From: Candidatus Omnitrophota bacterium
GTDB taxonomy: Bacteria; Omnitrophota; Omnitrophia; Omnitrophales; Aquincolibacteriaceae
Length of the DNA stretch: 64,000 nt
Reading direction: 5' to 3'
Assembly (NCBI GenBank): GCA_022709525.1
Contig: JAKLIQ010000002.1
Location: forward strand, 262,003 to 326,002
Within the stretch, counting starts at the first letter, position 1; each line of letters opens with the position of its first letter. The translations under genes were made by a program, and so were the position numbers. Under the pieces are notes generated by a model that saw nothing but the letters and a program-made list of their open reading frames with translations, made no database searches and was not told where the DNA came from. Positions 6,289 through 31,807 of this stretch are shown here, piece after piece.

Positions 6289-6304
6289 TCTGCGGGCTTT
6301 GAAA

Positions 6305-11216: not shown

Positions 11217-11234
11217 GAGCTCTGGGCGAGCGGA

Positions 11235-13742: not shown

Positions 13743-13880
13743 TTCAGCCCCCGCTAGAAATTGTTAAAGGTTCATCCAAGGTTTTATAGTGTAGCAAAAA
13801 GAACGGAATGCTCCAAGCGCGGTTTTAACTGACATCGGTGCATTTTAGCCCGCGAAGGTTCCGGCAAAGTCGCGTCTTGA

Positions 13881-14059
13881 GGCCGTCCGGGCAAGGTGGG
13901 CTGAAGGAACTTCTTGTCAGGTACCGGCGCTTCAGCCGCTCCTGCGGCGGCTGTTCGCCTTGGCTCTCGCCGCTCAAATTCTCGCTACGGCGAGAAACCA
14001 AGCTTTGAGCGGCTCCGAGACATACCTTCCCAAGAAGTTCCTTCAGTCCGAGGACGGTC
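13881..14059. repeat. ~180-nt long imperfect inverted repeat (potential long hairpin / structured RNA or MITE-like element)
   Basis: Perfect 16-nt arms ctgaaggaacttcttg (13901-13916) and caagaagttccttcag (14031-14046). Further nested complementary segments include ggccgtcc/ggacggtc, agccgct/agcggct and ctctcgccg/cggcgagaa. It is non-coding, between glgP and the GH13 gene. Confidence 0.4.
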
Positions 14060-14154
14060 GAAAGCCGAGCGATGACTTTCACGCTGGGAAAGTCGAGCGT
14101 CGGCTGAGCCGGAGGCCTGAGCAAAGGCTAAAAGGTGCAAGGGTCTGGGCGCGC

Positions 14155-15630: not shown

Positions 15631-15713
15631 GGTCCTTTCCCATAAGTCCTGCGACTATGGTTATCGGTCCCCTCTTGGATTTCCTTTATGAATCCTTCGA
15701 AAGACGGCGTTTT

Positions 15714-15760
15714 GAAAATAAAAAAGGCGCGGGCGACAATATCGTCCCGCGCCTTAAAAA
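15714..15760 (-). terminator. intrinsic terminator (usable in both directions) between the wHTH gene and the GH13 gene
   Basis: An 8-bp GC stem GGCGCGGG...CCCGCGCC (15726-15753) is flanked by an A-run on the plus strand. On the minus strand this gives a U-tract UUUUUUAUUUUC. Confidence 0.5.
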
Positions 15761-15782
15761 GATCGCTGGAATCCGTCAGAGT

Positions 15783-16001
15783 TCAGCCCTTAAGGAGGGA
15801 CACCTTAACGCTTTTACCCATTTTGTTGAAATTGATGTTATTTTCGCGGGCGAGCCAGCCGATCGCCTGATAGAACAAACCCTCTTCGACGCCGATCTCT
15901 TTTGAGAGCTTGGCCACTGTCATTTCGCCCTTTTGTTCCAAGGCCTTGTAGATCTTGCCCGCCGTTTCGCCGATCCCGTAATACTGTTCCTGCATGATCA
16001 T
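15783..16001 (-). CDS. small winged-helix DNA-binding protein (72 aa)
   Basis: MTVAKLSKEIGVEEGLFYQAIGWLAREN resembles a winged HTH. It lies between the GH57 and GH13 genes. Weak call. Confidence 0.4.
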   Translation of the reverse strand: MIMQEQYYGIGETAGKIYKALEQKGEMTVAKLSKEIGVEEGLFYQAIGWLARENNINFNKMGKSVKVSLLKG

Positions 16002-16034
16002 TCCCTTTCTGGTGTTTTCTCTAAGTTAGGATGA

Positions 16035-17612: not shown

Positions 17613-17614
17613 AG

Positions 17615-18613
17615 CTATTTGTGCTTTCCTGCTTTTAGGACAGGCGCGGGCCTTTCTGTATTGCGGCTAACGATCGGGGTGATGACCCTCTCTTCGACGC
17701 CGTCGGCAGATTCGGCGTGACAATCAAAAATGAACTTTCCGTCCGGAAGCCCGTAGCGCAGCGTGAAAGTGCCGTCCGGACGGAGCTGGACGGGCCTTCC
17801 CTGCATCGTGACCTTGGCGTCGGGTTCGGTGCCGCCGTAGATGATAAGCTCGCATTCAAGCCAAAAACGGAAACCGCGCTGCTTGATGCGGACAGGGCTT
17901 GAAAGACTTGAAACGGCGCCGGCTCCCGAGCCCGAGGTGATAGCGCTTTTGAGGCGCTCTTCCATGAGCTTGCGAAGCTCCGCCGAGCTTTTACCGACCT
18001 GAAATCCTCCCGAAAGGGCGTACATCTTGTCAAAATCAATCGACATCCACTGTTCGTCGATCACTTCCGACATGCCGGAGCGGGGGGTCGTGACGCGATT
18101 GGAACGGGCAAGGCAGATAAAGCGGCCGTCGCGGTGCAAGAGGCCGATCTCGACAAAATAGCTCCGGTTCGGCTGCGTATTGATGTACCAGCTTTTGGCC
18201 ATATTCTGAAGGACAATATCAAAAAATGAATGGCTCTTCCCGTCTTCCGTGACATCGTAGACCCGGAGCACGGACACAACGTTCTCCCAATTGCCGCCCA
18301 ACTTTGAAAGATGATGGCGCTGGTGGCCTTCCTGGATCTCCCAGTAAGCATAGATCCAGTAGGGGTCGCGCACGAGCAGGTAGATCTGGTTATCGCCGTA
18401 ATTATCCGGGAGTTCGCGCGGCATTTCTCGGACGGGCTGCGGTTCGAACCTGGGCGGCGCTACGATATTTTCCGGAATATCAAGAACGATCTCTTTGGGT
18501 TTGGGAACGGCTACGGATTTTTTTGTGACGGGGACCCGCTTACGAGTGGATGCGGCTGGTTTTGTCGACGGTTTTTTTTCTGCCCGAATTTTCTTGCGAG
18601 GCGATAGCGCCAT
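17615..18613 (-). CDS. DUF4912-domain protein (commonly adjacent to GH57 glycogen genes)
   Basis: Lys/Pro-rich N-terminus and a conserved core YLLVRDPYWIYAYWEI. Its stop directly abuts the GH57 start. Confidence 0.65.
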   Translation of the reverse strand: MALSPRKKIRAEKKPSTKPAASTRKRVPVTKKSVAVPKPKEIVLDIPENIVAPPRFEPQPVREMPRELPDNYGDNQIYLLVRDPYWIYAYWEIQEGHQRHHLSKLGGNWENVVSVLRVYDVTEDGKSHSFFDIVLQNMAKSWYINTQPNRSYFVEIGLLHRDGRFICLARSNRVTTPRSGMSEVIDEQWMSIDFDKMYALSGGFQVGKSSAELRKLMEERLKSAITSGSGAGAVSSLSSPVRIKQRGFRFWLECELIIYGGTEPDAKVTMQGRPVQLRPDGTFTLRYGLPDGKFIFDCHAESADGVEERVITPIVSRNTERPAPVLKAGKHK

Positions 18614-18836: not shown

Positions 18837-19445
18837 CTAGAATTTTTCAAAAAGGATCAAATAACACGCCACCAGAACAAGGGTTACGGCGGAAAGACGG
18901 CTGATAAGAGAGTGGTTCTTTTCCGTCCATTGATCGAGCTTTTTGAGGAGAAAGAACGCCAGCGGGACAAACCAGAGCATCGCGCCGATCACAAACCCCC
19001 CGAGGAAAAGCTCCTTGAACCAAGGTTGGCGAGTCTCCGGAAAGCGGGCATGGAGAAAACCGATGATGGCGATCCACATTAAAAAAACAGCCGGGTTGGT
19101 GATCACGACCAGGAAACCGACCAGAAAATTCCGGGTCGGGTTCCGCTTGCTGACCTCTTCGTTCTTCGGGAGCGGTTTGCCGTGGGTCCAAAAAACGCGC
19201 GCCGCCAGGATCAAGAGTATCGAGATGCCGACCCATCGGATGATCCCCCACCATTCCGGATGCTCCAACAGCGGGCGGGTCCCTTTAAAACCGATCCAAA
19301 GAAAGATCATATCGGCCGTGACCGATCCGCATCCGACAAGAAAAGCCGCGATCTTTCCGCGCCGGAGCCCGCGATGGATCATAAGCAGGTCGATCTGCCA
19401 ACCGAAACAAGAAGCGAGAAAACCGGCCACCATACCCAACAACAT
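18837..19445 (-). CDS. LysE/RhtB-type small-molecule exporter (6-TM)
   Basis: About 200 aa with 6 TM segments and a RhtB-like FLVGFLVVITNPAVFLMW motif. Start placed at internal ATG 19445, which overlaps the pssA stop as TAATG. Confidence 0.5.
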   Translation of the reverse strand: MLLGMVAGFLASCFGWQIDLLMIHRGLRRGKIAAFLVGCGSVTADMIFLWIGFKGTRPLLEHPEWWGIIRWVGISILLILAARVFWTHGKPLPKNEEVSKRNPTRNFLVGFLVVITNPAVFLMWIAIIGFLHARFPETRQPWFKELFLGGFVIGAMLWFVPLAFFLLKKLDQWTEKNHSLISRLSAVTLVLVACYLILFEKF

Positions 19446-20194
19446 TACGCGCCTCCTTCTTGCGGCGGAGCGTCGTGATCCCCGTTCGGCAAGAACCGCT
19501 GCGAGGAGATGCAATAAAATGGCGAAAGCACGAGGAATGTCAGAAATACGGCCGCGATCGCGCTTTCGATATTAAGAAAGAAGAACATCGTCGCAAGAAC
19601 GACCACCTGGACAAAAAACAGCGTCCGCCAGGAACGGAATTTTATGGCGGAGATCTTAGGGTAAGGAATGTCGCTGATCATGAGAAATCCGAGAGCGGTC
19701 ATCAAGAATACGACGGTCACAAGAGAGAAAGACCGGTCGGTCCAGTGATTTTTATAGAGAGCCAGCATGGTCATCATAAGCGTCAAGGCCGCGGCGGGGG
19801 TCGGAAGCCCCTCAAAGCATCCGCCGTGAATGGGGTTGACGTTAAAACGCGCCAAACGGAAGATACCCGAGCAGAGATAGAACACCACGATCAGGAGGAA
19901 GACAAAAGAAACATTCAAAAAAAACACTTTCGAGACAAGCATGCAGGGCGCCACCACGAACGAAACGGCGTCGGCTAAGGAATCCAGTTCGCGCCCGAAT
20001 TGGGTCTCGTTGCCGAAGATCCGCGCGACGTGGCCGTCCAGGGAATCCAGGATCAAAGCAAGAAAAACCAGCCAGACCGCGTACTCATATTTTTCCTGGA
20101 CGCTCATCAGGATCGACATGAAGCCCGCGACGAGATTGAGCATGGTGATCATGTTCGGAAAAGCGGCAGTCGTGAAATAGAACCGGTTTTTCAT
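19445..20194 (-). CDS. pssA: CDP-diacylglycerol--serine O-phosphatidyltransferase (phosphatidylserine synthase, CDP-alcohol phosphatidyltransferase family)
   Basis: CDP-OH-P-transferase motif DSLDGHVARIFGNETQFGRELDSLADAVSF and multiple TM segments. 3-nt gap to psd. Confidence 0.85.
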   Translation of the reverse strand: MKNRFYFTTAAFPNMITMLNLVAGFMSILMSVQEKYEYAVWLVFLALILDSLDGHVARIFGNETQFGRELDSLADAVSFVVAPCMLVSKVFFLNVSFVFLLIVVFYLCSGIFRLARFNVNPIHGGCFEGLPTPAAALTLMMTMLALYKNHWTDRSFSLVTVVFLMTALGFLMISDIPYPKISAIKFRSWRTLFFVQVVVLATMFFFLNIESAIAAVFLTFLVLSPFYCISSQRFLPNGDHDAPPQEGGA

Positions 20195-20197
20195 CTT

Positions 20198-20845
20198 TCA
20201 GGCCTCATCGTTCCATTGGCCCAGGACCGTGATGCCGGCCGCAACATGCTGCTTGACCTTGATATCCGCCCGGAACATTTTCGCCGGAATAAAGATCTCG
20301 ACCCCGGACCCGTAGCAGATCATCCCGATCTTTTCGCCGCGGCCCGCGACCTGTCCGATCGTCACATCCGAATAAATGCGCCTCGCGATCGCGCCCGTCA
20401 TTTGGCGCACAAGAACGCGGCGCGCGTGGTTTTCGATCCCGACCCAATTGGATTCATTATGGTCAAAAGCTTCCTTCCGTAAGGCATTCAAAAATTTTCC
20501 TTTAACATAATGTTGGTATTTTACGATGCCGGCCAAAGGCGATCGCGTGACATGCACGTCAAAGATCGAAAGAAAAATGCGGATACGGACCGCCGGACCG
20601 CGGAGAAACCGGTCTTCAAAGACCTCATCGACCCCGAGGACTGTGCCGTCCGCGGGGGCCAACAGGCCTTGGGCTGCGGGCGGGTCGCGGCGCGGGTCGC
20701 GGAAGAAAGCTAAATGCGCGAAAAGAAGAAATCCTAGGGCCGGCAATCCGAATGGAACCGGCCAGACTCTCTCCAAAAGGATCAGAGCGCCGAGGAGGAG
20801 GACTCCCGGCCAAACGCGTTTATCGAAAGGGATCTTGGGTCTCAT
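20198..20845 (-). CDS. psd: phosphatidylserine decarboxylase (short, archaeal-type Psd family proenzyme)
   Basis: 215 aa PSD family with LGS-type self-cleavage-region context (MICYGSGVEIFIP). Its ATG overlaps the stop of the upstream radical-SAM gene as ATGA. Confidence 0.8.
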   Translation of the reverse strand: MRPKIPFDKRVWPGVLLLGALILLERVWPVPFGLPALGFLLFAHLAFFRDPRRDPPAAQGLLAPADGTVLGVDEVFEDRFLRGPAVRIRIFLSIFDVHVTRSPLAGIVKYQHYVKGKFLNALRKEAFDHNESNWVGIENHARRVLVRQMTGAIARRIYSDVTIGQVAGRGEKIGMICYGSGVEIFIPAKMFRADIKVKQHVAAGITVLGQWNDEA

Positions 20846-22461
20846 GGTGCGGCAATAACAGGGGTCTTTTCTTTGTTCTTCGGTTCAAGGTGCTCCGCCG
20901 AAGACCCGTTCGCGTCTTCAAAAGGCGGTTTTTTCGGATCTTGCCCTTCCGGAACCCCCTGAGTTTCGATGACGTATTGCCGAAAAGCGCGATGCGTCCC
21001 GATCCATCTGAAGAATTCCAGCCACTTCCCCATCGAGAACGGTCCGCCCTTGGCCACGCGCCAAAAGGTCCCGGCAAAAAACTTCATGCGCTCAAAATCC
21101 AGGGTCAGCAAATAATAAGCCAGCAATTTGAACAACAAAGAAATAAATTTAAAATCAAGCGACGCGCGCTTATGCTCGGGGTTGAGGTTCCTGAAACGGC
21201 TCAAAGCCGTTACCAAACGGTCGCCATAGGCATCATAACGATAGAGGCACCGGCTCAGCCAGTTATACCCTTGATGGATCTCCTGAAGGGTCATGTTTTT
21301 GGGGATAAAATTACAGTCGGAAGACCCATGCCCGTTCATTTCGGTCCATTCCAGATCCAGCATCCGCCCTTCCGCTTGAAGTCGTTTCATAAGAGGCGTA
21401 TTCGGAAGCGCCATCAGGGTCCCGCAGGTTGTGAACGGGATCCCGAGCTCCTGGAGGAAATCAAAGGTTTCCTTAAAAATACTCTTGTCGTCAGAGTCAA
21501 AACCCACGATCATCCCGGCTACAACGGTCAGGTGATAGGAGTGGATGCGCTTGATATCTTCCAGGACATTTTCCCGGGTGTTCTGCACCTTGCCGGATTC
21601 CAAAAGACTCGCCTTGCGGGGCGACTCGATCCCGATGAAAAGCGCGTAGAAATTGGCCGCCTGAAAAAGCTCCAGAAGGTCCGGATGATGCGCGACATTG
21701 ATGGTCAGCTCGCACGAGAATTCGATCGGATAACCGTTCTTTTTGGAATAATCCGCGAGCGCCTTGAGAAGTTCCCGGGCATAAGGGATATTGCCGATGA
21801 AATTCGCGTCACCAAAAACGATGTAGTGAGCGCCTTGTTTGACGCAGTGATCGACCTCGGCAAGGACTTGGGCGATCGTCTTGGTGCGCGGCACGCGGCC
21901 GTCCATGATGATAATGTCACAGAATTCGCAATTGTAGGGACAGCCGCGGCTTGTCTGAAGCGAGAACATATTGTAAAGATGTCCCCGGATGAGATCGTAG
22001 CGCGGCGCGGGACTTTGGCGGATATCCACTTTTCTTGGGGCCTTGTAGAGCTCGCGCGCCTTCCCAGCTTCAAAATCACGAAGGAATTCCGGCCAAATCT
22101 CTTCGGCTTCTCCGGCGATCCGGTGATCGCATTTACCCTCGAAGGATTCGGGAAAGAGACTGCAATAAGGGCCGCCGACCACCACTTTTTTGCCGCGCTT
22201 GCGGAATTCCGCGATGATCTCAAGCGCCCGGTGATATTGAACATTGAATGCGCTAACGGCAACGAGATCAGCGTCTGTTTCGAAATTGATCGCCTCCACA
22301 TTCTCATCGGCGATCTCGACGTTCCAGGAGGTGGGCGTGAGCGCGGCGACCGTGCAGATCCCCAGCGGGGTGGTGGAGAACTTCGTCCCCGTCAGGGATT
22401 GAAGTCCCTCGAACGACCAGATGGTCGGTTGAAATTTGGGATTAACAATGTAAACTTTCAA
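20842..22461 (-). CDS. class-B (B12-binding domain) radical SAM enzyme with C-terminal DUF4070
   Basis: N-terminal cobalamin-binding Rossmann-like domain (DLVAVSAFNVQYHRALEIIAEFRKRGKKVVVGG) and a radical-SAM cluster motif CPYNCEFC. Long C-terminal domain follows. Confidence 0.85.
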   Translation of the reverse strand: MKVYIVNPKFQPTIWSFEGLQSLTGTKFSTTPLGICTVAALTPTSWNVEIADENVEAINFETDADLVAVSAFNVQYHRALEIIAEFRKRGKKVVVGGPYCSLFPESFEGKCDHRIAGEAEEIWPEFLRDFEAGKARELYKAPRKVDIRQSPAPRYDLIRGHLYNMFSLQTSRGCPYNCEFCDIIIMDGRVPRTKTIAQVLAEVDHCVKQGAHYIVFGDANFIGNIPYARELLKALADYSKKNGYPIEFSCELTINVAHHPDLLELFQAANFYALFIGIESPRKASLLESGKVQNTRENVLEDIKRIHSYHLTVVAGMIVGFDSDDKSIFKETFDFLQELGIPFTTCGTLMALPNTPLMKRLQAEGRMLDLEWTEMNGHGSSDCNFIPKNMTLQEIHQGYNWLSRCLYRYDAYGDRLVTALSRFRNLNPEHKRASLDFKFISLLFKLLAYYLLTLDFERMKFFAGTFWRVAKGGPFSMGKWLEFFRWIGTHRAFRQYVIETQGVPEGQDPKKPPFEDANGSSAEHLEPKNKEKTPVIAAP

Positions 22462-22512
22462 GAAGGATCCGTTCTGTATTTTTTAAAAATCATGGTATCC
22501 ATGGGCGCACGT

Positions 22513-24603
22513 TTAATGTTTTCTCAAAAAGATCCCGGAGATCAGGATGGAAAGCAGGAACCGGACGAACAGGACCGATTCCTCGACCGTTGCAAAAAAA
22601 AGACGGATATAATTGATCCCCCAAATGTTCCCGCGTTTCCAGGCGCTCCCGACATTTTCCCAAAAATGCTGCAGAGGAGCGCGCGTAAAAGTCAGGCGGA
22701 GTGAAAAAATATTCCACTTGTCAAGCCAGAGCCGGAATCCGGAGGGGGTCCGGAACCGGTAGACGCCTTTTTTCTCAAGCGACGCGGCGGCCTTCCGGTA
22801 AAGATTTTGAAGTTCTGAAACGCGAAGGTCGCGCCATTCTTTGGCGCACTGGGTCAGACGAGCGATCTCGGCGATCACTTTTTGTTCCAGCGGCCCGCGG
22901 CGGCGCGTTGCGAGCCAGACCTCTTCAAGCTCCAGCGCCAGTTTCCACCGTCCCCTCATCGCTCGCAGGATGTCGGAACATCTTCGTTTGAAATAGGTCC
23001 AGCGATCCTCGATCGGATAACCCGAGCGACGCTCCAGGCGTCCTTTCAAGCGGAAAAACCCGCAGATCATCGGATGCCCGCCTTCCACGTCGATGGAATT
23101 CTTATACCACATGAAATTCGAAAAAATACCCCAGTAATTATCTCCCTTGAGGTCCCTTGCCAGGATCCGCCTCATATTTTCCGTGCTGTAAAAGGTCTGC
23201 CAGGCGGCTTCATAAGCGGCAAGCCATTCCCCGGGTTTCATTCGGGGATGGCGGTGAGTCTCATGGAATGTGTCGTAGTTATTAAGATCGGCGTCCAGCA
23301 GCATCCCTTTTTCTAAAGCATTTTTGTAATCCATGGAACCCGGGAGCGGCGTCATCATGAAAAATGACGCTTGCCCGGCGCCGAACGACATCAGTTTTTC
23401 AACATCCTGTCTGACCGACTCCGCGGTGTCCAGGGGAAATCCAATGATGTAGGCTAAGTGGCAAACGACATCCACTTCATGAAAGGAATCCACCAGTTTT
23501 TTAAAATTCTCGATATCGTTCTGGTTCTTCTTCGCCGCTTTGAGATTTTCCTGGTTCAAGCTTTCGATGCCGATAAAGACTTGGCGGCAGCCGGCTCGGG
23601 CGGCTTTTTCCACAAAATTAGGTACCGTGTGGGCCTGAGTGTCCAGCTGCATCATGAAATGGAACGGGATCCCCTCTTTTTCCTTCAATTCGATAAGCCG
23701 GTCCAGGATCGTTTCCCAGTTCTTGTGGCGGCAGAAATTATCATCGGTAAAAAAGTAATGCGAAATGTTGTGACGGCGATAATCCTCGCGGATCCTCTGG
23801 ATCAGGAGATCCACGTCGCGGAAGCGCATCTTACGGCCCTGAACATTGATCACGGTGCAGAAACTGCATCCGAAGGGACATCCGCGGCCGCAATCAAGCG
23901 TCCCGAAGTGTTCAAGCGCGTAATGCTTCTGGTGTTTGGGGTTGATCCTCGGGAACGGGGCCTTGGAAATATCCGGGATATCGTTCAGGAAATTATAAAC
24001 GGGGCGGAGGCGGCCTTGCATCGCGTCACGAAGCAATCGCTCCCAGTGACCGCCCTCGGCCTCGCCGGCCACAAGGATCACGCCGGCGTTCTTGAGCGTC
24101 ACAAGTTCCGGGGAAAGATCCGGCAAGGTCGCCATGATGCCGCTGACATGAAACCCTCCGATCAGGACATCGATCCCCGCTTTTCGAAATTTTATCGCGA
24201 TATCGGAGGCGCGCGGAAATTGATTGGACTGGACCCCGACCAGACAGATCACGGTCTTGGTTCCGGCTTGGCGATCCTTCCGGGCGATCTTCCGGTAAGG
24301 GATCTTTTGGACCGTATCATCGATGAGCGTGATATCCCATGCCAGGTCCTTCCCCAGGACCTCGCGCTCACGGACATCCTCACTAAGACCGTTCAGGCAG
24401 GAAAGCGTATTGCTTGGCAGAACGCCCTTCCAGTAACGGATCAAATAGCCCTCGTCATCGTACTTGGAGGGCTTGATCAGATAAAGGCAGAGGCGCTTGT
24501 ATTTGTGAGAACAAGTTCCGGCAGGCCCTTCGCCTTGAGCTTCAAAAGAGGCTCCCGAGGCGCGGCCCAATTCAGAGGTTATGGGATTTTCTCGAATTTG
24601 CAT
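22513..24603 (-). CDS. class-B (B12-binding domain) radical SAM enzyme, long form (~696 aa)
   Basis: B12-binding domain (TKTVICLVGVQSNQFPRASDIAIKFRKAGIDVLIGG), a radical-SAM motif CGRGCPFGCSFC, and a ~250-aa C-terminal extension. The first ~35 residues look non-conserved, so the true start may be internal or non-ATG. Confidence 0.85.
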   Translation of the reverse strand: MQIRENPITSELGRASGASFEAQGEGPAGTCSHKYKRLCLYLIKPSKYDDEGYLIRYWKGVLPSNTLSCLNGLSEDVREREVLGKDLAWDITLIDDTVQKIPYRKIARKDRQAGTKTVICLVGVQSNQFPRASDIAIKFRKAGIDVLIGGFHVSGIMATLPDLSPELVTLKNAGVILVAGEAEGGHWERLLRDAMQGRLRPVYNFLNDIPDISKAPFPRINPKHQKHYALEHFGTLDCGRGCPFGCSFCTVINVQGRKMRFRDVDLLIQRIREDYRRHNISHYFFTDDNFCRHKNWETILDRLIELKEKEGIPFHFMMQLDTQAHTVPNFVEKAARAGCRQVFIGIESLNQENLKAAKKNQNDIENFKKLVDSFHEVDVVCHLAYIIGFPLDTAESVRQDVEKLMSFGAGQASFFMMTPLPGSMDYKNALEKGMLLDADLNNYDTFHETHRHPRMKPGEWLAAYEAAWQTFYSTENMRRILARDLKGDNYWGIFSNFMWYKNSIDVEGGHPMICGFFRLKGRLERRSGYPIEDRWTYFKRRCSDILRAMRGRWKLALELEEVWLATRRRGPLEQKVIAEIARLTQCAKEWRDLRVSELQNLYRKAAASLEKKGVYRFRTPSGFRLWLDKWNIFSLRLTFTRAPLQHFWENVGSAWKRGNIWGINYIRLFFATVEESVLFVRFLLSILISGIFLRKH

Positions 24604-24610
24604 GGGGACG

Positions 24611-24732
24611 GATTATAACCCAATTCCCCACCAACTCCTAGAAATGGTTTCCACCGCACGCCGTACGTGGTAGGTGGTAGGCAGTAGGTCATTTCAATCA
24701 ACCCACCACATACGACTTACCACATACTGTTC
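24611..24732 (-). promoter_or_regulatory. intergenic region with short direct repeats and a -10-like box upstream of the long radical-SAM gene
   Basis: Minus-strand reading shows GTATGTGGT twice (5-nt spacer), CCTAC three times, and TTATAAT 8 nt before the ATG. Confidence 0.3.
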
Positions 24733-25254
24733 CTAAAATTCGACCCCGGGTTGGGCCGGAACACCGCGATCAAAAGGATGCTTCACGCATCTCATTTCGG
24801 TGACAAGATCGGCGGCTTTAAGAAGGGCCTTGGGAGCGCCGCGGCCTGTCAGGATCACATGCTTCGTTTTAGGTCTTCGCCGAAGCGTCCGGATCACGCC
24901 CGGGATGTTCAGGAATTTATATTTAAGGGCAATGTTGATCTCATCAAGGATCACGAGCGCGTACCGGGGATCGCGCAGCAGCTGAACGCATTTTTTCCAG
25001 GCATCCCGCGCGGCTTTGAGATTTTCTTTCCGCGAAGTTTGCCAGGTAAATCCGCCGCCGAAACTCCAAACCTTGAATTGAGTATGCGGCAACATGTGGC
25101 GGCTTGGCGCTTTAAAAAATTGCACCATCGCGACGCGTTTGCCGTGTTTGATCATACGGACGGCCGATCCTACGGCGGCGGTTGTTTTCCCCTTCCCATT
25201 ACCGGTAAAAACCAGGATCAATCCTTGTTCCCGCTTCGCTTGCCGTATTTTCAT
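24733..25254 (-). CDS. cobA: cob(I)yrinic acid a,c-diamide / cob(I)alamin adenosyltransferase (CobA/BtuR/CobO family)
   Basis: Near-colinear with E. coli BtuR: ILVFTGNGKGKTTAA...VQF.K...L...FTW...DE......L....VI.TGRG. 5-nt gap after the TonB-dependent receptor. Confidence 0.85.
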   Translation of the reverse strand: MKIRQAKREQGLILVFTGNGKGKTTAAVGSAVRMIKHGKRVAMVQFFKAPSRHMLPHTQFKVWSFGGGFTWQTSRKENLKAARDAWKKCVQLLRDPRYALVILDEINIALKYKFLNIPGVIRTLRRRPKTKHVILTGRGAPKALLKAADLVTEMRCVKHPFDRGVPAQPGVEF

Positions 25255-25259
25255 TTCTG

Positions 25260-27350
25260 TTAATACTCCAATGAAAGACCGGACACGAATCCGCGCCCTT
25301 GAGCCGGATAATATCCTACCTGATTTGTACCGGAACTGTAACCGGCATATTCGGAATATTTCATATCAAAAAGGTTCGTCAATGACGCCCACGCCGTTAC
25401 CCAACGCCAGTGGTAACGGGCCTTAAGGTCCACGGTCGTATAGGCCTTAACTTTGGCGGCGTTATTGGTCGGATCGCTAATGGCGAAACGGCTGCTTAAG
25501 TGATTCAATTCCGCGGAAACCGTGAACCCCTTGACCGGCTCGGCGACGAATCCTGTCGCGTATTTGAATTCCGGCACGAAAGGAATGATCTTATTGGCGT
25601 AATCCCCGCCTTTAAAGTAGGGCTTTTGGACCGTCAGGTTGAAAAACGGTTTGATGTTGAACCAGCGTTTTTCAAAAAGCTTCAAGGAGGATTCCATTTC
25701 AAAGCCGTAGCGGCGCGTCGGAGAAATATAGTTGGAGTTCGCGAAGGTAAGCGGGTCGTAATAAAGCTCATCTTTGATGTCCGCTAAGAAAACATTCATG
25801 GCGACTTGAAGGGGTTTGTAGGTGTTATCACGAATGCCTAACTCATAATTCATTTCCTGTTGCTGCTTGAGTCCCGAATTCAGACCACCCGCCACCGGGC
25901 CCGTCCAGGAGATATAGGTATTCTGGTAGAATTCTTCGGTGGTCGGCGTTCGGAAAGAACGCGAAATATCAAAATAAGCGATAGAACGTTCGTTGTAACG
26001 GAACCCGATCCCGAAATCGAACGCCGGATCGCGCATGCTCGCCGTGTCGCGATTGGTCAGAGCGGCGGTCTGATTGAACCAGTAATTGGTCCATGCCCCT
26101 CGGAACCCGAGATTCAGAAGAAGTTTGTCCCAGAAAGTCAGGGTTTCGAGGATATAAACGCCGAGCGATTTTTTGGTGATATGAACTTCATCCTGGCCGG
26201 GCGCGCGATTGCCGCTCCGGATGCTGTCTTGGGCCGAAAAAAGATCGATCCCGGTCGTCATCTTGCTTGCCAGCCAATCCGTCAGGCGATACGTCCACTG
26301 GATCTTGGGCTGGAATTCATAAGTATCGATATGATGGATCGTTTCCCAATCGCCCCACGTGGATACAGAACTCCCTTTGCTTTGCCGGCGCCGGAATGAA
26401 TTGAACGCGGAAAGTTCAAAACCGTTCTTTCCAAGTTCAAAGCTCCACTTAGGGTCCGCGGTAAAAAAAGTCTCCTCGGTCCAGCCGCGGTCCTGCGAAT
26501 GCGTGCTGCCCCTGCGACCGATCGATTCAATGTCGTTCATAAAAAGCGCGCCGGGCATACCGTAGCGGTCTTTGTGAAAACCCGCTGTGAGATCCAGTCC
26601 CGCGCCATAAAAGGGCCCGACCCCGAGCTTGCCGAACCAGTCATTGGCCCAATAATCCGTATTGGTGCGCCAGCCGCCGTCCTGCGTATTTTCAAAATGA
26701 AAAGAGCCGCGGGCCCAATCGGTCGCCGCGGACACGGTCCCGCCGTTACGTTTATATTTATGGAGACCGATCTCGGTCTCGGCCTTTGCGTGGATCCCCG
26801 GTTCGATTTTTTTTGTGACGATATTGATCACGCCGCCCGCAGCGTTGTCGCCATATAGCACGGCAGAAGGACCGCGAATGATCTCGATGCGGTCAATGAT
26901 CGAGAGCGGAATCGCCGCCCAATCGGTGCCGGAAAGATCGATCTGATTGGTCCGGCGCCCGTCCACAAGAACAAGCACGTTCGTCCGGCCCGATTCCCCA
27001 AACCCGCGAATGTCGACCGACATGCCTTTGGGATTATCCTCCGTTTTGGTAACGACGATCCCCGCTTTAGATTTCAAAAGGTCGGGCACATAAAGCGCGG
27101 TGGAATTTTGGATCTCCTCCTGATCGATCACGGAGATGCTGCGGGTAATGTAAGAGCTTGAGTCGTCGGAACGGGTCACTTCCAGATGGATCGTATCCTG
27201 CGGGGTTTTTCCTTCTTCGACTTTCTTGGAAGTGTCCTGCGAAGATCCGTTCTCGGCGACCGGTTCCGGTGTTTCTATTTTTGGTTTTTGGGCCCAAACG
27301 GACGGGCTTAGAAAAAAACAAAGGATGCAAACTAAGAAAATCTTTTTCAT
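25260..27350 (-). CDS. TonB-dependent outer-membrane receptor (BtuB-like corrinoid receptor candidate)
   Basis: Signal peptide, a plug domain (IVVTKTEDNPKGMSVDIRGFG..NVLVLVDGRR) and a C-terminal beta-barrel. It is preceded by a cobalamin riboswitch. Confidence 0.8.
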   Translation of the reverse strand: MKKIFLVCILCFFLSPSVWAQKPKIETPEPVAENGSSQDTSKKVEEGKTPQDTIHLEVTRSDDSSSYITRSISVIDQEEIQNSTALYVPDLLKSKAGIVVTKTEDNPKGMSVDIRGFGESGRTNVLVLVDGRRTNQIDLSGTDWAAIPLSIIDRIEIIRGPSAVLYGDNAAGGVINIVTKKIEPGIHAKAETEIGLHKYKRNGGTVSAATDWARGSFHFENTQDGGWRTNTDYWANDWFGKLGVGPFYGAGLDLTAGFHKDRYGMPGALFMNDIESIGRRGSTHSQDRGWTEETFFTADPKWSFELGKNGFELSAFNSFRRRQSKGSSVSTWGDWETIHHIDTYEFQPKIQWTYRLTDWLASKMTTGIDLFSAQDSIRSGNRAPGQDEVHITKKSLGVYILETLTFWDKLLLNLGFRGAWTNYWFNQTAALTNRDTASMRDPAFDFGIGFRYNERSIAYFDISRSFRTPTTEEFYQNTYISWTGPVAGGLNSGLKQQQEMNYELGIRDNTYKPLQVAMNVFLADIKDELYYDPLTFANSNYISPTRRYGFEMESSLKLFEKRWFNIKPFFNLTVQKPYFKGGDYANKIIPFVPEFKYATGFVAEPVKGFTVSAELNHLSSRFAISDPTNNAAKVKAYTTVDLKARYHWRWVTAWASLTNLFDMKYSEYAGYSSGTNQVGYYPAQGRGFVSGLSLEY

Positions 27351-27397
27351 TTTTTACCTTTCACGCGAAGGAAAACCCGGCCGTTGTCTCCTGGCTC

Positions 27398-27520
27398 TTG
27401 GCAACCTACTCTCCGGCCTTCCCGCCTTTTTCAGGCAGTGGCCTCAAGGATTTCGTTCCAAGTTACAGTTGCGCGGCAGCAACGGATTTGCACCGTTTTC
27501 CGAAAACCGTCCGGATCCGC
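27398..27520 (-). promoter_or_regulatory. cobalamin (B12) riboswitch upstream of the TonB-dependent receptor
   Basis: Minus-strand RNA reads GGUGCAAAUCCGUUGCUGCCGCGCAACUGUAA...GAGGCCACUGCCUGAAAAAGGCGGGAAGGCCGGAG. This matches the conserved GGUGC, AAUCC, GCCACUG (B12 box) and GGGAAGGCCGG elements. Confidence 0.75.
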
Positions 27521-27521
27521 T

Positions 27522-28274
27522 TCATGTTCCTTTCTTGAAATAGGTTGAATGTGACGCTACCGAAAAAAATTCCGCGATCCTTTCCGGCCGTAAAAATTCC
27601 CCGGCAGGACCTGTCGCGGCCATTTTCCCCGAGCGGAGCATCACAACACGCCCGAGAAAAGGCTTCAGCCATTCCCATTGATGCGAGATCACGGCCACGG
27701 TCAGCTTTTCGCGCTGCTGTAGCCGCGTCAAAAGTTCAAAAAGGCCGATCTGCTGACGGATATCAAGATTGGAGACCGGCTCGTCTAAAAGAAGGATCTT
27801 AGCCTGCTGGCAGATCGCGCGGGCGATCTCAACGCGCCGCCTTTCGCCGCCGCTTAATTGAAGGATCGAGCGTTTGGCGAAACGCAGGGTGTCGGTCGCT
27901 TCCATCGCCCATGCGGCGCGCTCAAGATCCTCTTTGCGGTTCCAAAAACCGTGGGGCGCGTTCGGGAACCTTCCCATCAGGACCAGCTCCTCGACCGTGA
28001 ACGGAAAAATATAGGCGGCGTCCTGCTCGAGATAAGCCGCTTTGCGCGCGATCTCCAAGGCATTCATTCTTTCAACCGGGTTTTCAAAAAGAAAAGTTTT
28101 TCCCGAACGCGGCCGAAGCCAGCCAAGCGCGAGTTTAAAAAGTGTGGTTTTTCCGGCGCCGTTTTCGCCCAAAAAAAGCGTCATGCTCCCTTCTTCGAGC
28201 GAACATGAGAATGAATCGATATGAAAAGCGCTCCCGTATTGAAAGCTGACATCGCGCCACTCGACAGCGTTCAT
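27522..28274 (-). CDS. btuD: ABC transporter ATP-binding protein (cobalamin/iron-siderophore type)
   Basis: Walker A GENGAGKTT, ABC signature LSGGERRRVEIA and Walker B ILLLDEP. Start at internal ATG 28274, which overlaps the btuC stop as ATGA. Confidence 0.85.
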   Translation of the reverse strand: MNAVEWRDVSFQYGSAFHIDSFSCSLEEGSMTLFLGENGAGKTTLFKLALGWLRPRSGKTFLFENPVERMNALEIARKAAYLEQDAAYIFPFTVEELVLMGRFPNAPHGFWNRKEDLERAAWAMEATDTLRFAKRSILQLSGGERRRVEIARAICQQAKILLLDEPVSNLDIRQQIGLFELLTRLQQREKLTVAVISHQWEWLKPFLGRVVMLRSGKMAATGPAGEFLRPERIAEFFSVASHSTYFKKGT

Positions 28275-29251
28275 GAGATCACCCGTTTTCCTTCGCGCCT
28301 TTTGAGGATGACGATAAAGAACGGAACGCCTAAAAGGGCTGTCACGATCCCGACGGGGATCTCCGAAGGATAGAAAAGAGAACGCGCGAGCATATCGGCT
28401 CCGGCCAAAAGAACACCGCCGGCCCAAGCGCTCACGGGCAGGGAGCGGCGAAGGTCCGAACCGACAAAAAGCCGGGCGACGTGCGGGCTCATCAGCCCCA
28501 CAAAGCTGATCATGCCGCTTAAAGAGACCGCCGCGCCTGTCAGGATCGCGGCGGCGATAAAAAGAAGGATTTGGGTTTTTTCGACGCTTACGCCGAGCGA
28601 ACGGGCGGCGGATTCTCCCAGCGAAAGCAGGTTCAGTTTCGGCGCTTGCCTCATGAAGAAAAACCCCACGATACCGAGCGTGATAAATAAAAAAAGGATC
28701 TGAGCATAACCTGCCATGGACAAATTCCCTAAAAGCCAGTTAAAAGCTGCCGCGGTATCGTCGGAACGGAAAAGCGACTGGCAAAAAAGCATCAGCGACA
28801 CTAAAAAGGAATTGATCATGACGCCGAGAAGAAGCAGCGTGTACATGGAAAGCGCGCCTTTGCGCATGGAGAGCAGGAAAACAAGAAAAAGCACCGCGAG
28901 GGCCCCCAGCCCGGCAAATACGGGGAAAAATGAGAAGGAGAACCCAAACACCGCGCAGATCCATACTCCCGCGCCGGCGCCGGCGGAAACTCCGATCAAA
29001 TGCGGGTCGGCCAGAGGATTCCTGAAAAGGGACTGAAACACGGCGCCCGTCACCGCAAGCGACATCCCGACCCCCCAGGCGAGCAGGAAACGCGGTAATC
29101 TTAAATAAAAAAAGAGGAACCGGTCCTGTTCGCTCGCAAGGTCAAGAAGCCCGCGAGGACCGACAAGATTTAAAAAGAGCAAGCCGGCGGGGATAAACAT
29201 CAAGATGAGAAAACTCCGCAGCGCCCGTTTAGACATGGATCTTCTCCGCAT
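28271..29251 (-). CDS. btuC: FecCD-family ABC permease (BtuC-like)
   Basis: About 9-10 TM segments and FecCD-family similarity. Confidence 0.85.
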   Translation of the reverse strand: MRRRSMSKRALRSFLILMFIPAGLLFLNLVGPRGLLDLASEQDRFLFFYLRLPRFLLAWGVGMSLAVTGAVFQSLFRNPLADPHLIGVSAGAGAGVWICAVFGFSFSFFPVFAGLGALAVLFLVFLLSMRKGALSMYTLLLLGVMINSFLVSLMLFCQSLFRSDDTAAAFNWLLGNLSMAGYAQILFLFITLGIVGFFFMRQAPKLNLLSLGESAARSLGVSVEKTQILLFIAAAILTGAAVSLSGMISFVGLMSPHVARLFVGSDLRRSLPVSAWAGGVLLAGADMLARSLFYPSEIPVGIVTALLGVPFFIVILKRREGKRVIS

Positions 29252-30131
29252 AAGGATTTTCAGGACCCGGCGTGTCTTCAGCCGCTAATGTGACCGTTTC
29301 AAGCCACATCGGCGTTCTGGGGCCCGGTACCGGAAGCGCTTCTTTTTTAAAAAGATAAACACGCCCTTCGCGTACAGCTCTTAGAGCGCGGTATTTCCCC
29401 CAGAATGCGCGGGCTTCTTTCATTTCGTCGGCCCAGGATTTATCCCGCTCAAACGCGCTCGCGTCAAGGATCACATCCGGGTCCTCCCTGAAAACCGCTT
29501 CCATGGTCCATTTGGGATACCGTGTCCGGCTGGATCCTGCGATATTTTGAGCACCGATCGTCCGGAGCGCGTCATCTTCCATGGTTCCCTTGCCCGCGAC
29601 GATCAAAGGGAAACGCCATGCGACATAAAGCGCTTTTATTTTTGGATCCTGAAGGGCGCGATCACGGTATTTTTCTATTTCCCCGGAGATTTTCTGGCGC
29701 GCGGTTTTCGCTTCCCGCTCATGCCCCGAAACTTCCCCCAAAGCTGAAAAACTTTCAAGAAGATCTTCCAAGGAATAAAACGAAACGGAGATAACGGGTT
29801 TGCGGAATTCGACGAACTTTTCATAAATGATCCGCGTTCCCGAATTCGGGGTAACGGTCACAAGATCGGGGCTGCGCGCCAGGATCGCTTCAAGGGAATG
29901 ACGGTCGAATCCGCCGATCCGCGGGATCTTCCGGGCTTCGGGCGGCCAGACGCAGAAATCGGTCACGCCCGCGATCTGAGGGCCCGCGCCGATCGCGAAA
30001 AGGATCTCGGTCGTGGAAGGAGAAAGAGAAACGATTCTTGCCGGACGTTGATCCGCGGATGTTTCCGCAAAACCGCCGGCCGGAAGAAGAAAACAAATCA
30101 AAAATAAAGAACAAAGACCTTTCGGAAACAA
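29229..30131 (-). CDS. btuF: periplasmic cobalamin-binding protein (BtuF-like ABC substrate-binding protein)
   Basis: Signal peptide and a BtuF-like fold (RIVSLSPSTTEILFAIGAG..GVTDFC). The first codon appears to be TTG at 30131-30129, located right after the leader hairpin. Confidence 0.8.
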   Translation of the reverse strand: MFPKGLCSLFLICFLLPAGGFAETSADQRPARIVSLSPSTTEILFAIGAGPQIAGVTDFCVWPPEARKIPRIGGFDRHSLEAILARSPDLVTVTPNSGTRIIYEKFVEFRKPVISVSFYSLEDLLESFSALGEVSGHEREAKTARQKISGEIEKYRDRALQDPKIKALYVAWRFPLIVAGKGTMEDDALRTIGAQNIAGSSRTRYPKWTMEAVFREDPDVILDASAFERDKSWADEMKEARAFWGKYRALRAVREGRVYLFKKEALPVPGPRTPMWLETVTLAAEDTPGPENPYAEKIHV

Positions 30132-30133
30132 AA

Positions 30134-30167
30134 AGCCCTTTCCGCCTCAAAGGGGCAAGAAAGGGCT
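30134..30167 (-). promoter_or_regulatory. riboswitch expression platform: SD-sequestering hairpin / terminator abutting the btuF start
   Basis: Minus-strand RNA AGCCCUUUC-uugccccuuugaggcg-GAAAGGGCU is followed by UUUUUG-UUG(start). The 3' arm contains the SD GAAAGGG. Confidence 0.5.
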
Positions 30168-30264
30168 AGCCTGTCTTGACCTCTGCTCGGAGGCATTTTA
30201 AAAATCTCAAATCTGAAATTTGAAATTTATGGATAATGGGTTGATATTCTGACTAGGCAAGTAC

Positions 30265-30385
30265 AAACCTACTCGCGGCCTTCCCGCCCTTTAATCTTGC
30301 TCGGGGCAGTGGCGATTCGCTTTCGTCCTTACCGACAGCGGCGGCACCGTGGAGTCCCCGCAAAACTCAGCGGGTCTCTCTTCCC
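30265..30385 (-). promoter_or_regulatory. cobalamin (B12) riboswitch upstream of btuF-btuC-btuD
   Basis: Minus-strand RNA reads GGUGCCGCCGCUGUCGGUAAGGACGAAAGCGAAUCGCCACUGCCCCGAGCAAGAUUAAAGGGCGGGAAGGCCGCGAG. It carries the GGUGC, AAUCGCCACUG (B12 box) and GGGAAGGCCGC elements. Confidence 0.75.
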
Positions 30386-30469
30386 AAATGCTCCCATTAT
30401 CATACTTTCTTCAAAGAACGATAATCTTGACGTTCAGTATAAAGAAAAAACTCATCAGCGCAACGTTTT

Positions 30470-31807
30470 TCATTCGCGCGAAAGATCTTTAAGATTTGTT
30501 GCGGATTCCAATCCTTCGATAACCTCCGGGATAATGCCTTTTTCCACATAAACCGGACGCATCTGCCGGCGGATCAAAGGAAGTTTCCTGATGAAAAGAA
30601 GCGCGATCGCCACACAGCAAACGCCCCCGAGTAAAACTGTATAAGGCGCGCCGATCCTGGCGGCCAAAAATCCTCCGAGCAAACTCCCGAAAGGGGCGGT
30701 TCCTAAAAAGGCGACGGTATAAAAACCCATGACTCTGCCCCGTTTGTCCTCATCGACGACGCTTTGAAGGACCGTATTGCAGGCCGCGATATTCACCATG
30801 ATCCCGAACCCCGCGGCCAAAATGACCGGCATCGCAAGCCAAAAATCGTTCAAAAAAGAAAAGAGCGTGATCGAGATCCCAAAAAGAACGGCTGTTCCCG
30901 CGATCACTTTGGAAAGTCCGCGGACATCTTTTCGCGAAGCAAGATAAACGGCGCCGACAAGAGCGCCGAACCCCGACATTCCCATCAAAAGACCCAAGGT
31001 CCCGGGGCCTCCGTGAAAAATATCGCGCGCAAAAACAGGCATCAGGACCTGATAAGGAACGCCCAAGACGCTCATCATCGACAAAAGGATCAGGATCCAC
31101 TTGATGGGGGCGAGCCGGAAGGCATAACCAAGTCCCTCTTTTAACTCGATGAGAATATGGCGTGGCGGCGCGGCAGTTTTGGATGGAGCGATCCGCATCG
31201 CCGCCAAAGCAAAGATCACGGGAATGAAACTGACCGCGTTCAAGAGAAAACAAACACCTTCGCCCGCCGAAGCGATCAGGATCCCCGCAATCGAGGGCCC
31301 GATCAGTCGCGCCGCATTCAGCATTGAAGAATTAAGCGCGATCGCGTTCCCCAGGTCTTCCCTGTCTTCGATCATCTCGACGGTGAATGCCTGACGGATC
31401 GGGATATCAAATGCAAAGATCGCCCCGAGAAAAAAACTTAACGCCATGATGTGCCAGACTTCGATCCGGTTTGAAAGCACCAAAAATGCCAGGATCGAGG
31501 CCTGGATAAAAAAAGAGACTTGTGTCCCGATCAACATGTTCCGTCGGTTGTGGCGATCGGCAAAAACGCCGGCAAAAGGCGTCAGAAAAAAAACAGGGAT
31601 CTGGCTCATGAACATGGCCATACCCAAAAGAAAAGGCGAATTTGTCATGCGATAGACCAGCCAGCTTAACGCGACCTGCTGCATCCAGGTCCCGATCAGG
31701 GACGCACTCTGGCCCCAGAAAAAGATACGGTAATTCCGGTGCCGCAACGCGCGGAACACGAGCTGGAGGTTGGTCTTTTTTTCGGAATGCTGCGCGGCAG
31801 GATCCAT
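30470..31807 (-). CDS. MFS-family transporter (EntS/DHA-like)
   Basis: 445 aa, 12 TM segments, and an MFS motif region GVFADRHNRRNMLIG. Confidence 0.7.
   Translation of the reverse strand: MDPAAQHSEKKTNLQLVFRALRHRNYRIFFWGQSASLIGTWMQQVALSWLVYRMTNSPFLLGMAMFMSQIPVFFLTPFAGVFADRHNRRNMLIGTQVSFFIQASILAFLVLSNRIEVWHIMALSFFLGAIFAFDIPIRQAFTVEMIEDREDLGNAIALNSSMLNAARLIGPSIAGILIASAGEGVCFLLNAVSFIPVIFALAAMRIAPSKTAAPPRHILIELKEGLGYAFRLAPIKWILILLSMMSVLGVPYQVLMPVFARDIFHGGPGTLGLLMGMSGFGALVGAVYLASRKDVRGLSKVIAGTAVLFGISITLFSFLNDFWLAMPVILAAGFGIMVNIAACNTVLQSVVDEDKRGRVMGFYTVAFLGTAPFGSLLGGFLAARIGAPYTVLLGGVCCVAIALLFIRKLPLIRRQMRPVYVEKGIIPEVIEGLESATNLKDLSRE

Follow-up and report, generated by a model that had tools for sequence, protein, structure and literature searches.

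Enzymes of the radical S-adenosylmethionine (rSAM) type are known to rewrite lipid tails in archaeal tetraethers, in hopanoids and in the diabolic acids of bacteria. A review of 2026 lists Tes, Mss, Gms, GrsA/B, Gmm, Cds, HpnH/J/P/R, Jaw5 and a proposed ladderane enzyme, but no class-B rSAM enzyme acting on ordinary bacterial glycerophospholipids and no operon joining such enzymes to psd and pssA, the genes for phosphatidylserine decarboxylase and CDP-diacylglycerol-serine O-phosphatidyltransferase (PMC13459092). Here we describe a locus of a Candidatus Omnitrophota bacterium (contig JAKLIQ010000002.1), in which the genes of two class-B-type rSAM proteins, referred to as the long and the short rSAM, are followed by psd and pssA and preceded by a unit for corrinoid salvage. 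The whole stretch of 64 kb that was analysed is called the window, and all coordinates refer to it. With a probability of roughly 0.5 we favour the reading that this is a separately promoted operon, the two rSAM proteins of which modify the acyl chains of the phospholipids made by PssA and Psd, beside a B12 salvage unit.

HpnP and the uncharacterised 'HpnP-like' proteins are defined by a B12-binding, a radical SAM and a DUF4070 domain, and the cobalamin dependence of HpnP has been shown (Hoshino et al. 2023, PMC10697835). GrsA and GrsB, which form the rings of glycerol dialkyl glycerol tetraethers (GDGT), and Gmm/Hgm, the methylase of glycerol monoalkyl glycerol tetraethers (GMGT), are class-B rSAM enzymes working on the tails of intact lipids and are often clustered with lipid rSAM genes (10.1101/2023.10.20.563219; PMC13459092). 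Mss, which is reported to have hydrophobic regions near its C-terminus (PMC13159169), is described in the literature on these lipids as 'another radical SAM enzyme', and GrsA/GrsB as B12-binding. Verified Mss proteins are those of T. ethanolicus (WP_129545148.1) and T. maritima (Tmari_0825), and Mss homologues were reported to be absent from the Acidobacteria examined. Homologues of Tes occur in only 3 of 14 producers of iso-diabolic acid. The B12 rSAM protein of the ladderane cluster (TIGR04072) is of class B as well and is encoded among genes for acyl carrier protein (ACP), ketoacyl-ACP synthase (KAS) and FabZ, its own function being only proposed (PMC13459092).

Gene order and predicted promoter

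All genes of the region are located on the minus strand with short gaps. According to Rfam, Pfam and NCBIfam the order is riboswitch, btuF-like gene, btuC, btuD, riboswitch, TonB-dependent receptor, cobA, long rSAM, short rSAM, psd, pssA and a LysE-type gene. These identities and this order had already been given in a sequence-only reading of the region, and its junctions agree with the sequence as we read it directly: 5 nt between receptor and cobA, 129 nt between cobA and the long rSAM gene, an ATGA overlap of short rSAM gene and psd, 3 nt between psd and pssA and a TAATG overlap of pssA and the LysE-type gene. The 129-nt gap had been regarded as the single one, but a second gap of 51 nt between the rSAM genes was overlooked; the short rSAM gene starts with TTG at 22461.

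For comparison, 80 species-level genome loci of long-rSAM homologues (numbered with L) were compared by tblastn with the window proteins. About 20 of them, with at least 67% identity, form clade A, in which the block of long rSAM, short rSAM, psd, pssA and LysE-type gene is intact; homologues with 52-58% identity form clade B. Ahead of the long-rSAM start, clade A shares a promoter-like element, which in the window extends from 24604 to 24655 (minus strand) and consists of the box GAAACCATTyCTAGnAGT, about 17 nt, the hexamer TATAAT, 8 nt and the ATG. A TAnAAT hexamer was found at this place in 19 of 19 clade-A loci covering 66-100% protein identity (the window, L004, L006-L011, L013, L015, L016, L019-L025 and L087); L018 stands outside this count, its extracted sequence falling within the N-terminal coding region. 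The distance between hexamer and ATG is 8 nt in 17 of the 19 loci and 10 nt in L015 and L025. Positions 1, 2, 4, 5 and 6 of the hexamer are invariant and only position 3 varies (TACAAT, TAGAAT); a sigma-70 -10 box is conserved in just this way. In several clade-A loci the upstream box is degenerate, and L025 lacks it; the conserved CTAG-containing sequence of this box may be the site of a regulator.

The element is independent of the gene in front of it. This gene is cobA in the window, L087 and L004 and protoporphyrinogen oxidase in L008, L010, L011, L013, L016, L020, L021 and L024, and the element is also present where other genes precede the long rSAM, including FabF in L019. RNAalifold predicted no pairs for the conserved upstream element, a GGGG/CCCC flank compensating only weakly, so that a structured RNA leader was rejected in favour of a promoter or operator acting at DNA level. 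Likewise, a generic leaderless-promoter pattern of the genome was rejected, since TATAAT-N5-10-ATG occurs once in 64 kb; the upstream box is single-copy as well. No Shine-Dalgarno sequence was found ahead of the long rSAM gene. We conclude that the stretch from 24604 to 24655 is probably a dedicated promoter or operator of the rSAM-psd-pssA unit, and because it lies so close to the ATG, the mRNA starting from it is probably leaderless or nearly so.

The sequence-only reading had mentioned repeats in the 129-nt gap. This holds for an inverted repeat at 24663-24727 (minus strand), just past the cobA stop, with arms of 27 nt and a loop of 11 nt (the fold of the whole gap has -51.9 kcal/mol and a z value of -3.25), and the conserved promoter-like element follows it. 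No other copy of the repeat was detected in the window, and a dispersed repeat or mobile element was therefore rejected. The hairpin sequence is not conserved in L087, a relative with 91% identity, which, judged by eye, seems to have a different inverted repeat at the corresponding place. Possibly, the hairpin in the window is a 3'-end or terminator hairpin of the B12 unit.

In the relatives, cobalamin riboswitches are found solely ahead of receptor or btu transport genes and none near the rSAM genes. Together with the conserved promoter-like element and the hairpin after cobA this indicates that the 11.5 kb, read before as one unit, are unlikely to be one and are probably two, split between cobA and the long rSAM gene. 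In clade A, 12 loci have enough flank to judge the position of cobA, which is present within 10 kb upstream in 7 of them, B12 genes being absent within 10 kb in the other 5. In 4 relatives a distance of about 8 kb, occupied by unrelated genes, separates cobA from the long rSAM, and in three lineages (window, L087, L004) the two directly adjoin. Although the genes of the B12 unit are arranged differently in the window and in L004, the unit abuts the long rSAM in both.

Protoporphyrinogen oxidase, where present, lies about 1.4 kb upstream of the long rSAM (L008, L010, L011, L013, L016, L020, L021 and L024). Upstream of the oxidase, genes for a chagasin-type inhibitor, a small unknown protein and a GGDEF/MshEN response regulator were observed, and in L011, L016, L021 and L024 these three are located between the oxidase and cobA. 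Since this segment of about 7 kb is missing in the lineage of the window, cobA abuts the long rSAM gene there.

Properties of the two radical SAM proteins

The long rSAM (22513-24603, minus strand) is a protein of 696 aa with a class-B-type Rossmann domain, an rSAM core (PF04055, 60 bits) and a helical C-terminal domain; its cluster motif is C242-x3-C246-x2-C249. The short rSAM (20842-22461, minus strand; 539 aa, TTG start) comprises a B12-binding domain (PF02310, 42.2 bits, cut-off 32.1), Radical_SAM (PF04055, 68.8 bits) and DUF4070 (PF13282, 45.1 bits), with the cluster motif C174-x3-C178-x2-C181. In 36-sequence alignments of long and short rSAM the cysteines of these motifs are invariant. 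A Pfam search of the long protein detected neither a B12-binding domain nor DUF4070. Aligned with hhalign, however, both proteins match with a probability of 99.9 over residues 34-477 of the long and 1-412 of the short one, the N-terminal domain included, and by this sequence comparison they are paralogues.

The AlphaFold2 model of the long rSAM (mean predicted local distance difference test value, pLDDT, 77.5) exhibits a Rossmann-type beta-alpha-beta domain at residues 37-205, an rSAM barrel and a helical C-terminal domain of about 230 residues. At the C-terminus there is a hydrophobic helix with conserved positions (residues 675-693, Kyte-Doolittle 2.03). In Foldseek searches of the PDB the best match of this model was AprD4, and CysS, TsrM, TokK, MgmA and OxsB matched, too. 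For the short rSAM (mean pLDDT 87.0) the top matches were AprD4, MgmA, CysS, TsrM, OxsB and TokK. AprD4 was also the top phmmer match in the PDB for both proteins. In sequence and predicted structure both rSAM proteins have class-B architecture. This makes them candidate cobalamin proteins; AprD4, the best match, has the fold but is not known to bind the cofactor. The sequence-only reading had named them two B12-radical-SAM enzymes: the class-B fold is confirmed for both by hhalign and Foldseek, but the Pfam B12-binding domain was found in the short one only and the best match is AprD4. The nearness of B12 uptake genes in 7 of the 12 clade-A loci hints that cobalamin may be used.

Neither protein attains any curated NCBIfam cut-off; the best matches, all far below threshold, were HpnJ, a PhpK-type family, BchE, TIGR04013 and TIGR04072. 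Family members carry no database name more specific than 'radical SAM protein' or 'B12-binding domain-containing radical SAM protein'. Among the best 120 homologues of either protein, every named one belongs to the Omnitrophota, and the long rSAM shares 100% identity with a protein of a Candidatus Omnitrophota metagenome-assembled genome. The long-rSAM family comprises 486 representative clusters (50% identity) at E<=1e-30, and outside the phylum homologues with 46-50% full-length identity occur in Acidobacteriota, Bacteroidota, Ignavibacteriota, Tectomicrobia, Latescibacterota and Spirochaetes. In the Acidobacteriota, where the family is common, carriers are found in Terriglobia, Solibacteraceae and Vicinamibacteria. 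A family member is also encoded in the cultured Oceanospirillum beijerinckii (WP_051227484.1).

The phospholipid genes and their linkage to the radical SAM genes

The psd gene (20198-20845, minus strand) encodes a short-type phosphatidylserine decarboxylase (PF02666 PS_Dcarbxylase, E 1.9e-32, 113 bits, cut-off 22) with the Gly-Ser self-cleavage site YGSG near the C-terminus; its score for NF003678 (185 bits) is under the cut-off of 225. PssA (19445-20194, minus strand) exceeds the cut-off of TIGR00473 (135.3 bits, cut-off 107) and contains the CDP-alcohol phosphatidyltransferase motif D-x2-DG-x2-AR-x8-G-x3-D-x3-D at residues 50-75. The last gene (18837-19445, minus strand), starting with the ATG of the TAATG overlap, encodes a LysE/RhtB-type membrane protein of 202 aa with six hydrophobic segments (Pfam LysE, E 5.2e-21). 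Immediately downstream of the block, at 11235-18613 (minus strand), we observed genes for a DUF4912 protein, a GH57 branching enzyme, an alpha-amylase-like protein and glycogen phosphorylase.

Among homologues of about 60% identity, the block is variable in composition. L025 and L050 have long rSAM, psd and pssA without the short rSAM, and L001 and L028 have the rSAM pair without an adjacent psd. In L028, psd-pssA-LysE are located about 5.4 kb upstream of the pair, the LysE-type gene staying with psd-pssA even when these are apart from the rSAM genes. The metagenome-assembled genome fen_1321 (PLLJ01) contains both a clade-A copy (L021, 82% identity, with short rSAM and psd/pssA) and a clade-B copy (L034, 58%). 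As one genome carries both, clades A and B represent paralogues and not orthologues.

Neighbouring genes of homologues

Beside psd and pssA, further genes of lipid type were found next to homologues of both rSAM proteins. In 10 loci of the long-rSAM family of the Omnitrophota the next gene downstream encodes a hotdog (4HBT) thioesterase; in L018, L019 and L044 FabF is encoded just ahead of the long rSAM, and in L034 a thioester reductase lies upstream. L048 contains, from 5229 to 16980, a NirJ1-like rSAM, a protein of the NMO family, the long rSAM, an AhbD-like rSAM, a fatty-acid hydroxylase, an MFS (major facilitator superfamily) protein and an AsmA/YhdP-like protein. In L044 (6080-15265) the cluster starts in the same way, with FabF before the long rSAM and a further class-B rSAM after it. 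The NMO-family protein of both loci may be FabK-like, as this Pfam family includes FabK enoyl-ACP reductases. The hosts of L044 and L048 are high-GC Omnitrophota. By their gene content these multi-rSAM clusters are candidates for lipid-tail remodelling clusters in their own right.

The NirJ- and AhbD-like neighbours might also point to a haem pathway. Their scores are under the equivalog cut-offs and they occur alongside FabF, the FabK-like protein, fatty-acid hydroxylase and AsmA-like protein with no other haem genes, which weakens this interpretation. Furthermore, the AhbD-like rSAM proteins include the lipid cross-linker Gms/Hbs, whose bacterial homologues cluster with lipid synthase genes (10.1101/2023.10.20.563219).

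For the short-rSAM subfamily the context was judged qualitatively in 8 loci outside clade A (57-76% identity), and six or seven of these have lipid-type neighbours. A short-rSAM homologue with 73% identity heads the cluster of L089 (7001-14079), followed by methyltransferase, ACP, holo-ACP synthase, a hypothetical protein, two KAS and an NAD-dependent reductase; flanked by a glycosyltransferase and MMPL, it resembles specialised fatty-acid or ladderane-style clusters. Another homologue has LPG_synthase_C directly upstream and LuxC, LuxE and LuxD downstream. A further locus contains P450, a hydrolase, KAS III, a CMAS-type methyltransferase and a second DUF4070 rSAM, and yet another one LPG_synthase_C and a 4HBT thioesterase. 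One locus each has a fatty-acid desaturase, MlaC with MMPL, and a GDSL lipase with a methyltransferase, and the eighth has no informative neighbour. The lipid role ascribed to the rSAM pair by the sequence-only reading is thus backed by recurring lipid neighbours of Omnitrophota homologues (short rSAM 57-76%, long rSAM 52-74% identity), but the context outside the phylum is uninformative.

Proposed function and alternative explanations

According to the reading we favour, unit 1 (30412 to 24733) would be off when cobalamin is plentiful, and unit 2 (24655 to 18837), with long rSAM, short rSAM, psd, pssA and the LysE-type gene, would be expressed from its own promoter. Both rSAM proteins, each equipped with a Rossmann domain of cobalamin type and a [4Fe-4S]/SAM core, would work at the membrane, to which the long one may be anchored by its C-terminal hydrophobic helix, and would modify unactivated carbons of the fatty-acyl chains of phospholipids. 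They would act on, or alongside, the phosphatidylserine (PS) and phosphatidylethanolamine (PE) that PssA and Psd of the same operon produce. The likeliest reaction would be a cobalamin-dependent C-methylation, the default for this architecture; alternatives would be ring formation or cross-linking. The identities of the genes, the domain architecture and paralogy of the rSAM proteins, the conserved element ahead of them and the patterns of neighbouring genes are observed; where transcription of unit 2 starts, that cobalamin is used and which lipid is converted by which reaction is what we infer. The proximity of B12 uptake would reflect a demand for the cofactor and not co-transcription, and the recurring proximity of cobA is compatible with such a loose association.

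Several observations weigh against this reading. The linkage to psd/pssA is conserved in one Omnitrophota clade, but within 10 kb these genes are absent in clade B and in all homologues sampled outside the Omnitrophota. Synteny across clade A is just as strong for the unrelated glycogen genes downstream (DUF4912, GH57 and phosphorylase) as for psd and pssA, so that conserved order alone cannot prove function. In 8 clade-A loci the gene directly preceding the long rSAM encodes protoporphyrinogen oxidase (TIGR00562, 213 bits, over the cut-off), and in 6 clade-B loci NirJ1/AhbC-like and AhbD-like rSAM proteins flank the long rSAM. The 112 neighbours of long-rSAM homologues outside clade A are heterogeneous, the 4HBT signal occurring within the Omnitrophota only, and 145 neighbours of the wider DUF4070 family (35-45% identity) exhibit no enrichment among the matches listed, which are mostly distant relatives. 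The lipid context of the short rSAM comes from a small sample of 8 loci, the -35 region of the predicted promoter departs from the sigma-70 consensus, and AprD4, the best structural match, is an enzyme which we take to have the class-B fold but to be cobalamin-independent and not a methylase. The linkage absent outside clade A, the glycogen genes, the neighbours of tetrapyrrole type, the wider DUF4070 family and the presence of BchE and HpnJ among the best matches, far below threshold, would all fit if synteny was simply inherited, psd, pssA and the LysE-type gene representing the housekeeping PE pathway and the rSAM substrate being a non-lipid, e.g. a tetrapyrrole converted by BchE-like chemistry, a cofactor, a quinone or a protein. 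We consider this somewhat unlikely, as the promoter-like element lies between the oxidase and the long rSAM, the NirJ/AhbD-like proteins are below cut-off, cluster with lipid-type instead of haem genes and belong, in the case of AhbD, to a group including a lipid cross-linker, and genes of lipid type are found again and again beside members of both rSAM families, in several arrangements unrelated to one another.

A different question is that of the cofactor. The match to AprD4, the missing Pfam B12-binding domain of the long rSAM and the fact that 5 of 12 clade-A loci have no B12 genes within 10 kb would agree with cobalamin-independent, AprD4-like chemistry using SAM only (dehydration, desaturation or C-C coupling) next to a coincidental B12 unit, which would concern the cofactor only and be compatible with a lipid substrate. 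In our view this is unlikely: the short rSAM exceeds the Pfam B12-binding threshold and has the layout of the cobalamin-dependent HpnP, the cobalamin enzymes CysS, TsrM, TokK, MgmA and OxsB match nearly as well as AprD4, and 7 of 12 clade-A loci have B12 uptake genes and cobA within 10 kb, arranged in two internal orders. Clearly improbable is the model of the sequence-only reading, i.e. one riboswitch-governed super-operon of 11.5 kb with import and adenosylation co-transcribed with, and supplying, the rSAM proteins and PS/PE synthesis. It is in line with the common strand, the short gaps throughout and the adjacency of cobA and rSAM in the window, L087 and L004, and no canonical intrinsic terminator (hairpin and U-tract) was found between cobA and the long rSAM. 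The promoter-like element, however, is present whatever gene lies upstream, cobA is about 8 kb away in 4 relatives and absent within 10 kb in 5, and the relatives have no riboswitches near the rSAM genes. Cobalamin riboswitches are usually OFF switches shutting genes down at high cobalamin, so that co-transcription would repress B12-requiring enzymes just when B12 is plentiful. The product of cobA is adenosylcobalamin, whereas class-B rSAM enzymes cycle methylcobalamin and cob(I)alamin; as adenosylcobalamin is not their working cofactor, the idea that adenosylation directly feeds the rSAM pair could not be upheld.

If the lipid role is true, the two rSAM genes are directly testable candidates for a new modification of membrane lipids; if it is false, nothing more is present here than a common kind of B12 salvage unit with two uncharacterised rSAM genes next to it. 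To our knowledge, the lipids of Omnitrophota are essentially unknown. The long-rSAM family extends into the Acidobacteriota, producers of branched GDGT (brGDGT), and the brGDGT lipids of this phylum underpin palaeoclimate proxies, their biosynthetic enzyme set being still incomplete. It is a long shot that an undescribed cobalamin-dependent remodelling of PS/PE acyl chains (methyl branching, ring formation or cross-linking) takes place in Omnitrophota and that the long-rSAM family could supply one of the missing enzymes for iso-diabolic-acid/brGDGT biosynthesis or methylation.

The corrinoid salvage unit

The unit from 30412 to 24733 is an ordinary riboswitch-controlled corrinoid salvage unit. 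It starts with a cobalamin riboswitch upstream of btuF (30222-30412, minus strand), which matches RF00174 over the full length of the model with 39.9 bits (E 1.3e-06), the Rfam gathering score being 31.5 bits. Between this riboswitch and the btuF start, at 30126-30154 (minus strand), a terminator-like hairpin and U-run (CCCTTTGAGGCGGAAAGGG then CTTTTTGTTT) was found by consensus match only; judged from its sequence, it is the probable expression platform of the riboswitch. The BtuF-like periplasmic corrinoid-binding protein (29229-30131, minus strand; Pfam Peripla_BP_2, E 1.1e-27) has BtuF as its best NCBIfam match with 87.8 bits, under the equivalog cut-off. It is followed by an ABC permease of the BtuC/FecCD type (28271-29251, minus strand; Pfam FecCD, E 3.5e-84), the best NCBIfam match of which is BtuC, also under the cut-off, and by a BtuD-like ABC ATPase of 250 aa (27522-28274, minus strand; Pfam ABC_tran). 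The start of the latter was revised to the ATG at 28274, resulting in an ATGA overlap with btuC, and the orthologue in L087 has 250 aa, too.

A second cobalamin riboswitch is located between btuD and the receptor gene (27386-27501, minus strand) and scores 80.3 bits for RF00174 (E 3.6e-18); the value for the L087 orthologue is 74.3 bits. The TonB-dependent outer-membrane receptor (25260-27350, minus strand; Pfam Plug and TonB_dep_Rec_b-barrel) does not reach the BtuB equivalog cut-off and is presumed, because of the riboswitch, to take up corrinoid. The last gene, cobA/btuR (24733-25254, minus strand), encodes an ATP:cob(I)alamin adenosyltransferase (TIGR00708, 197.4 bits, cut-off 167.75; Pfam CobA_CobO_BtuR, E 7.6e-57). 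Compared to riboswitch-controlled btuB-btuFCD-btuR salvage loci the kit is the same, comprising two RF00174 aptamers, ABC importer, receptor and cobA. The sole oddity is that the second riboswitch is placed inside the gene string, in the interval between btuD and the receptor.

In several lineages an MFS_3-family transporter gene (in the window at 30470-31807, minus strand) accompanies the rSAM genes or the B12 unit. Such a gene is present in L004 (2353-3657), lies divergent from the rSAM pair in L001 (8436-9719) and directly follows a short-rSAM homologue in L088 (8605-9897). Elsewhere in the window, at 63126-63178 (minus strand), there is an nhaA-I RNA (RF03057) of the riboswitch class with 48.9 bits, the gathering score being 37.

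Comparison with known lipid-modifying systems

Tes was rejected as the identity of the two rSAM proteins. The GDGT-MAS structure was absent from the phmmer matches in the PDB (E<=0.01) and from the top 50 Foldseek matches in the PDB for both of them, so that there is neither a sequence nor a fold match to the solved GDGT-MAS. Common to Tes/GDGT-MAS, Mss and the proposed pair would be the functionalisation of lipid tails by radical SAM chemistry. Like Mss, which could be compared by its published description only, the long rSAM has a hydrophobic segment at its C-terminus. Mss homologues were reported missing from those Acidobacteria that were examined, a phylum in which members of the long-rSAM family are common.

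The multi-rSAM clusters of L044 and L048 resemble those of GrsA/GrsB and Gmm, a likeness drawn from the published description only. GrsA/GrsB and Gmm are archaeal, whereas the hosts here are bacteria with lipids based on fatty acids. The short-rSAM homologue of L089 is located in a cluster with ACP, holo-ACP synthase and two KAS similar to the anammox ladderane cluster, but neither of the two rSAM proteins belongs to the family of the ladderane enzyme, as they score only 78.2 bits (short) and 57.4 bits (long) for TIGR04072, the cut-off of which is 360 bits.

The domain layout of HpnP and the HpnP-like proteins is identical to the three-domain layout of the short rSAM; the long rSAM lacks DUF4070. 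The short rSAM is not an orthologue, since no HpnP model was matched and for HpnR (TIGR04367, cut-off 650 bits) the values are 34.1 bits for the short and 37.2 bits for the long rSAM. Instead of hopanoid genes, which were not seen beside the short rSAM, its neighbours are glycerophospholipid and fatty-acid genes. As for HpnP and HpnR, the presumed substrate of the short rSAM would likewise be a hydrophobic membrane lipid.

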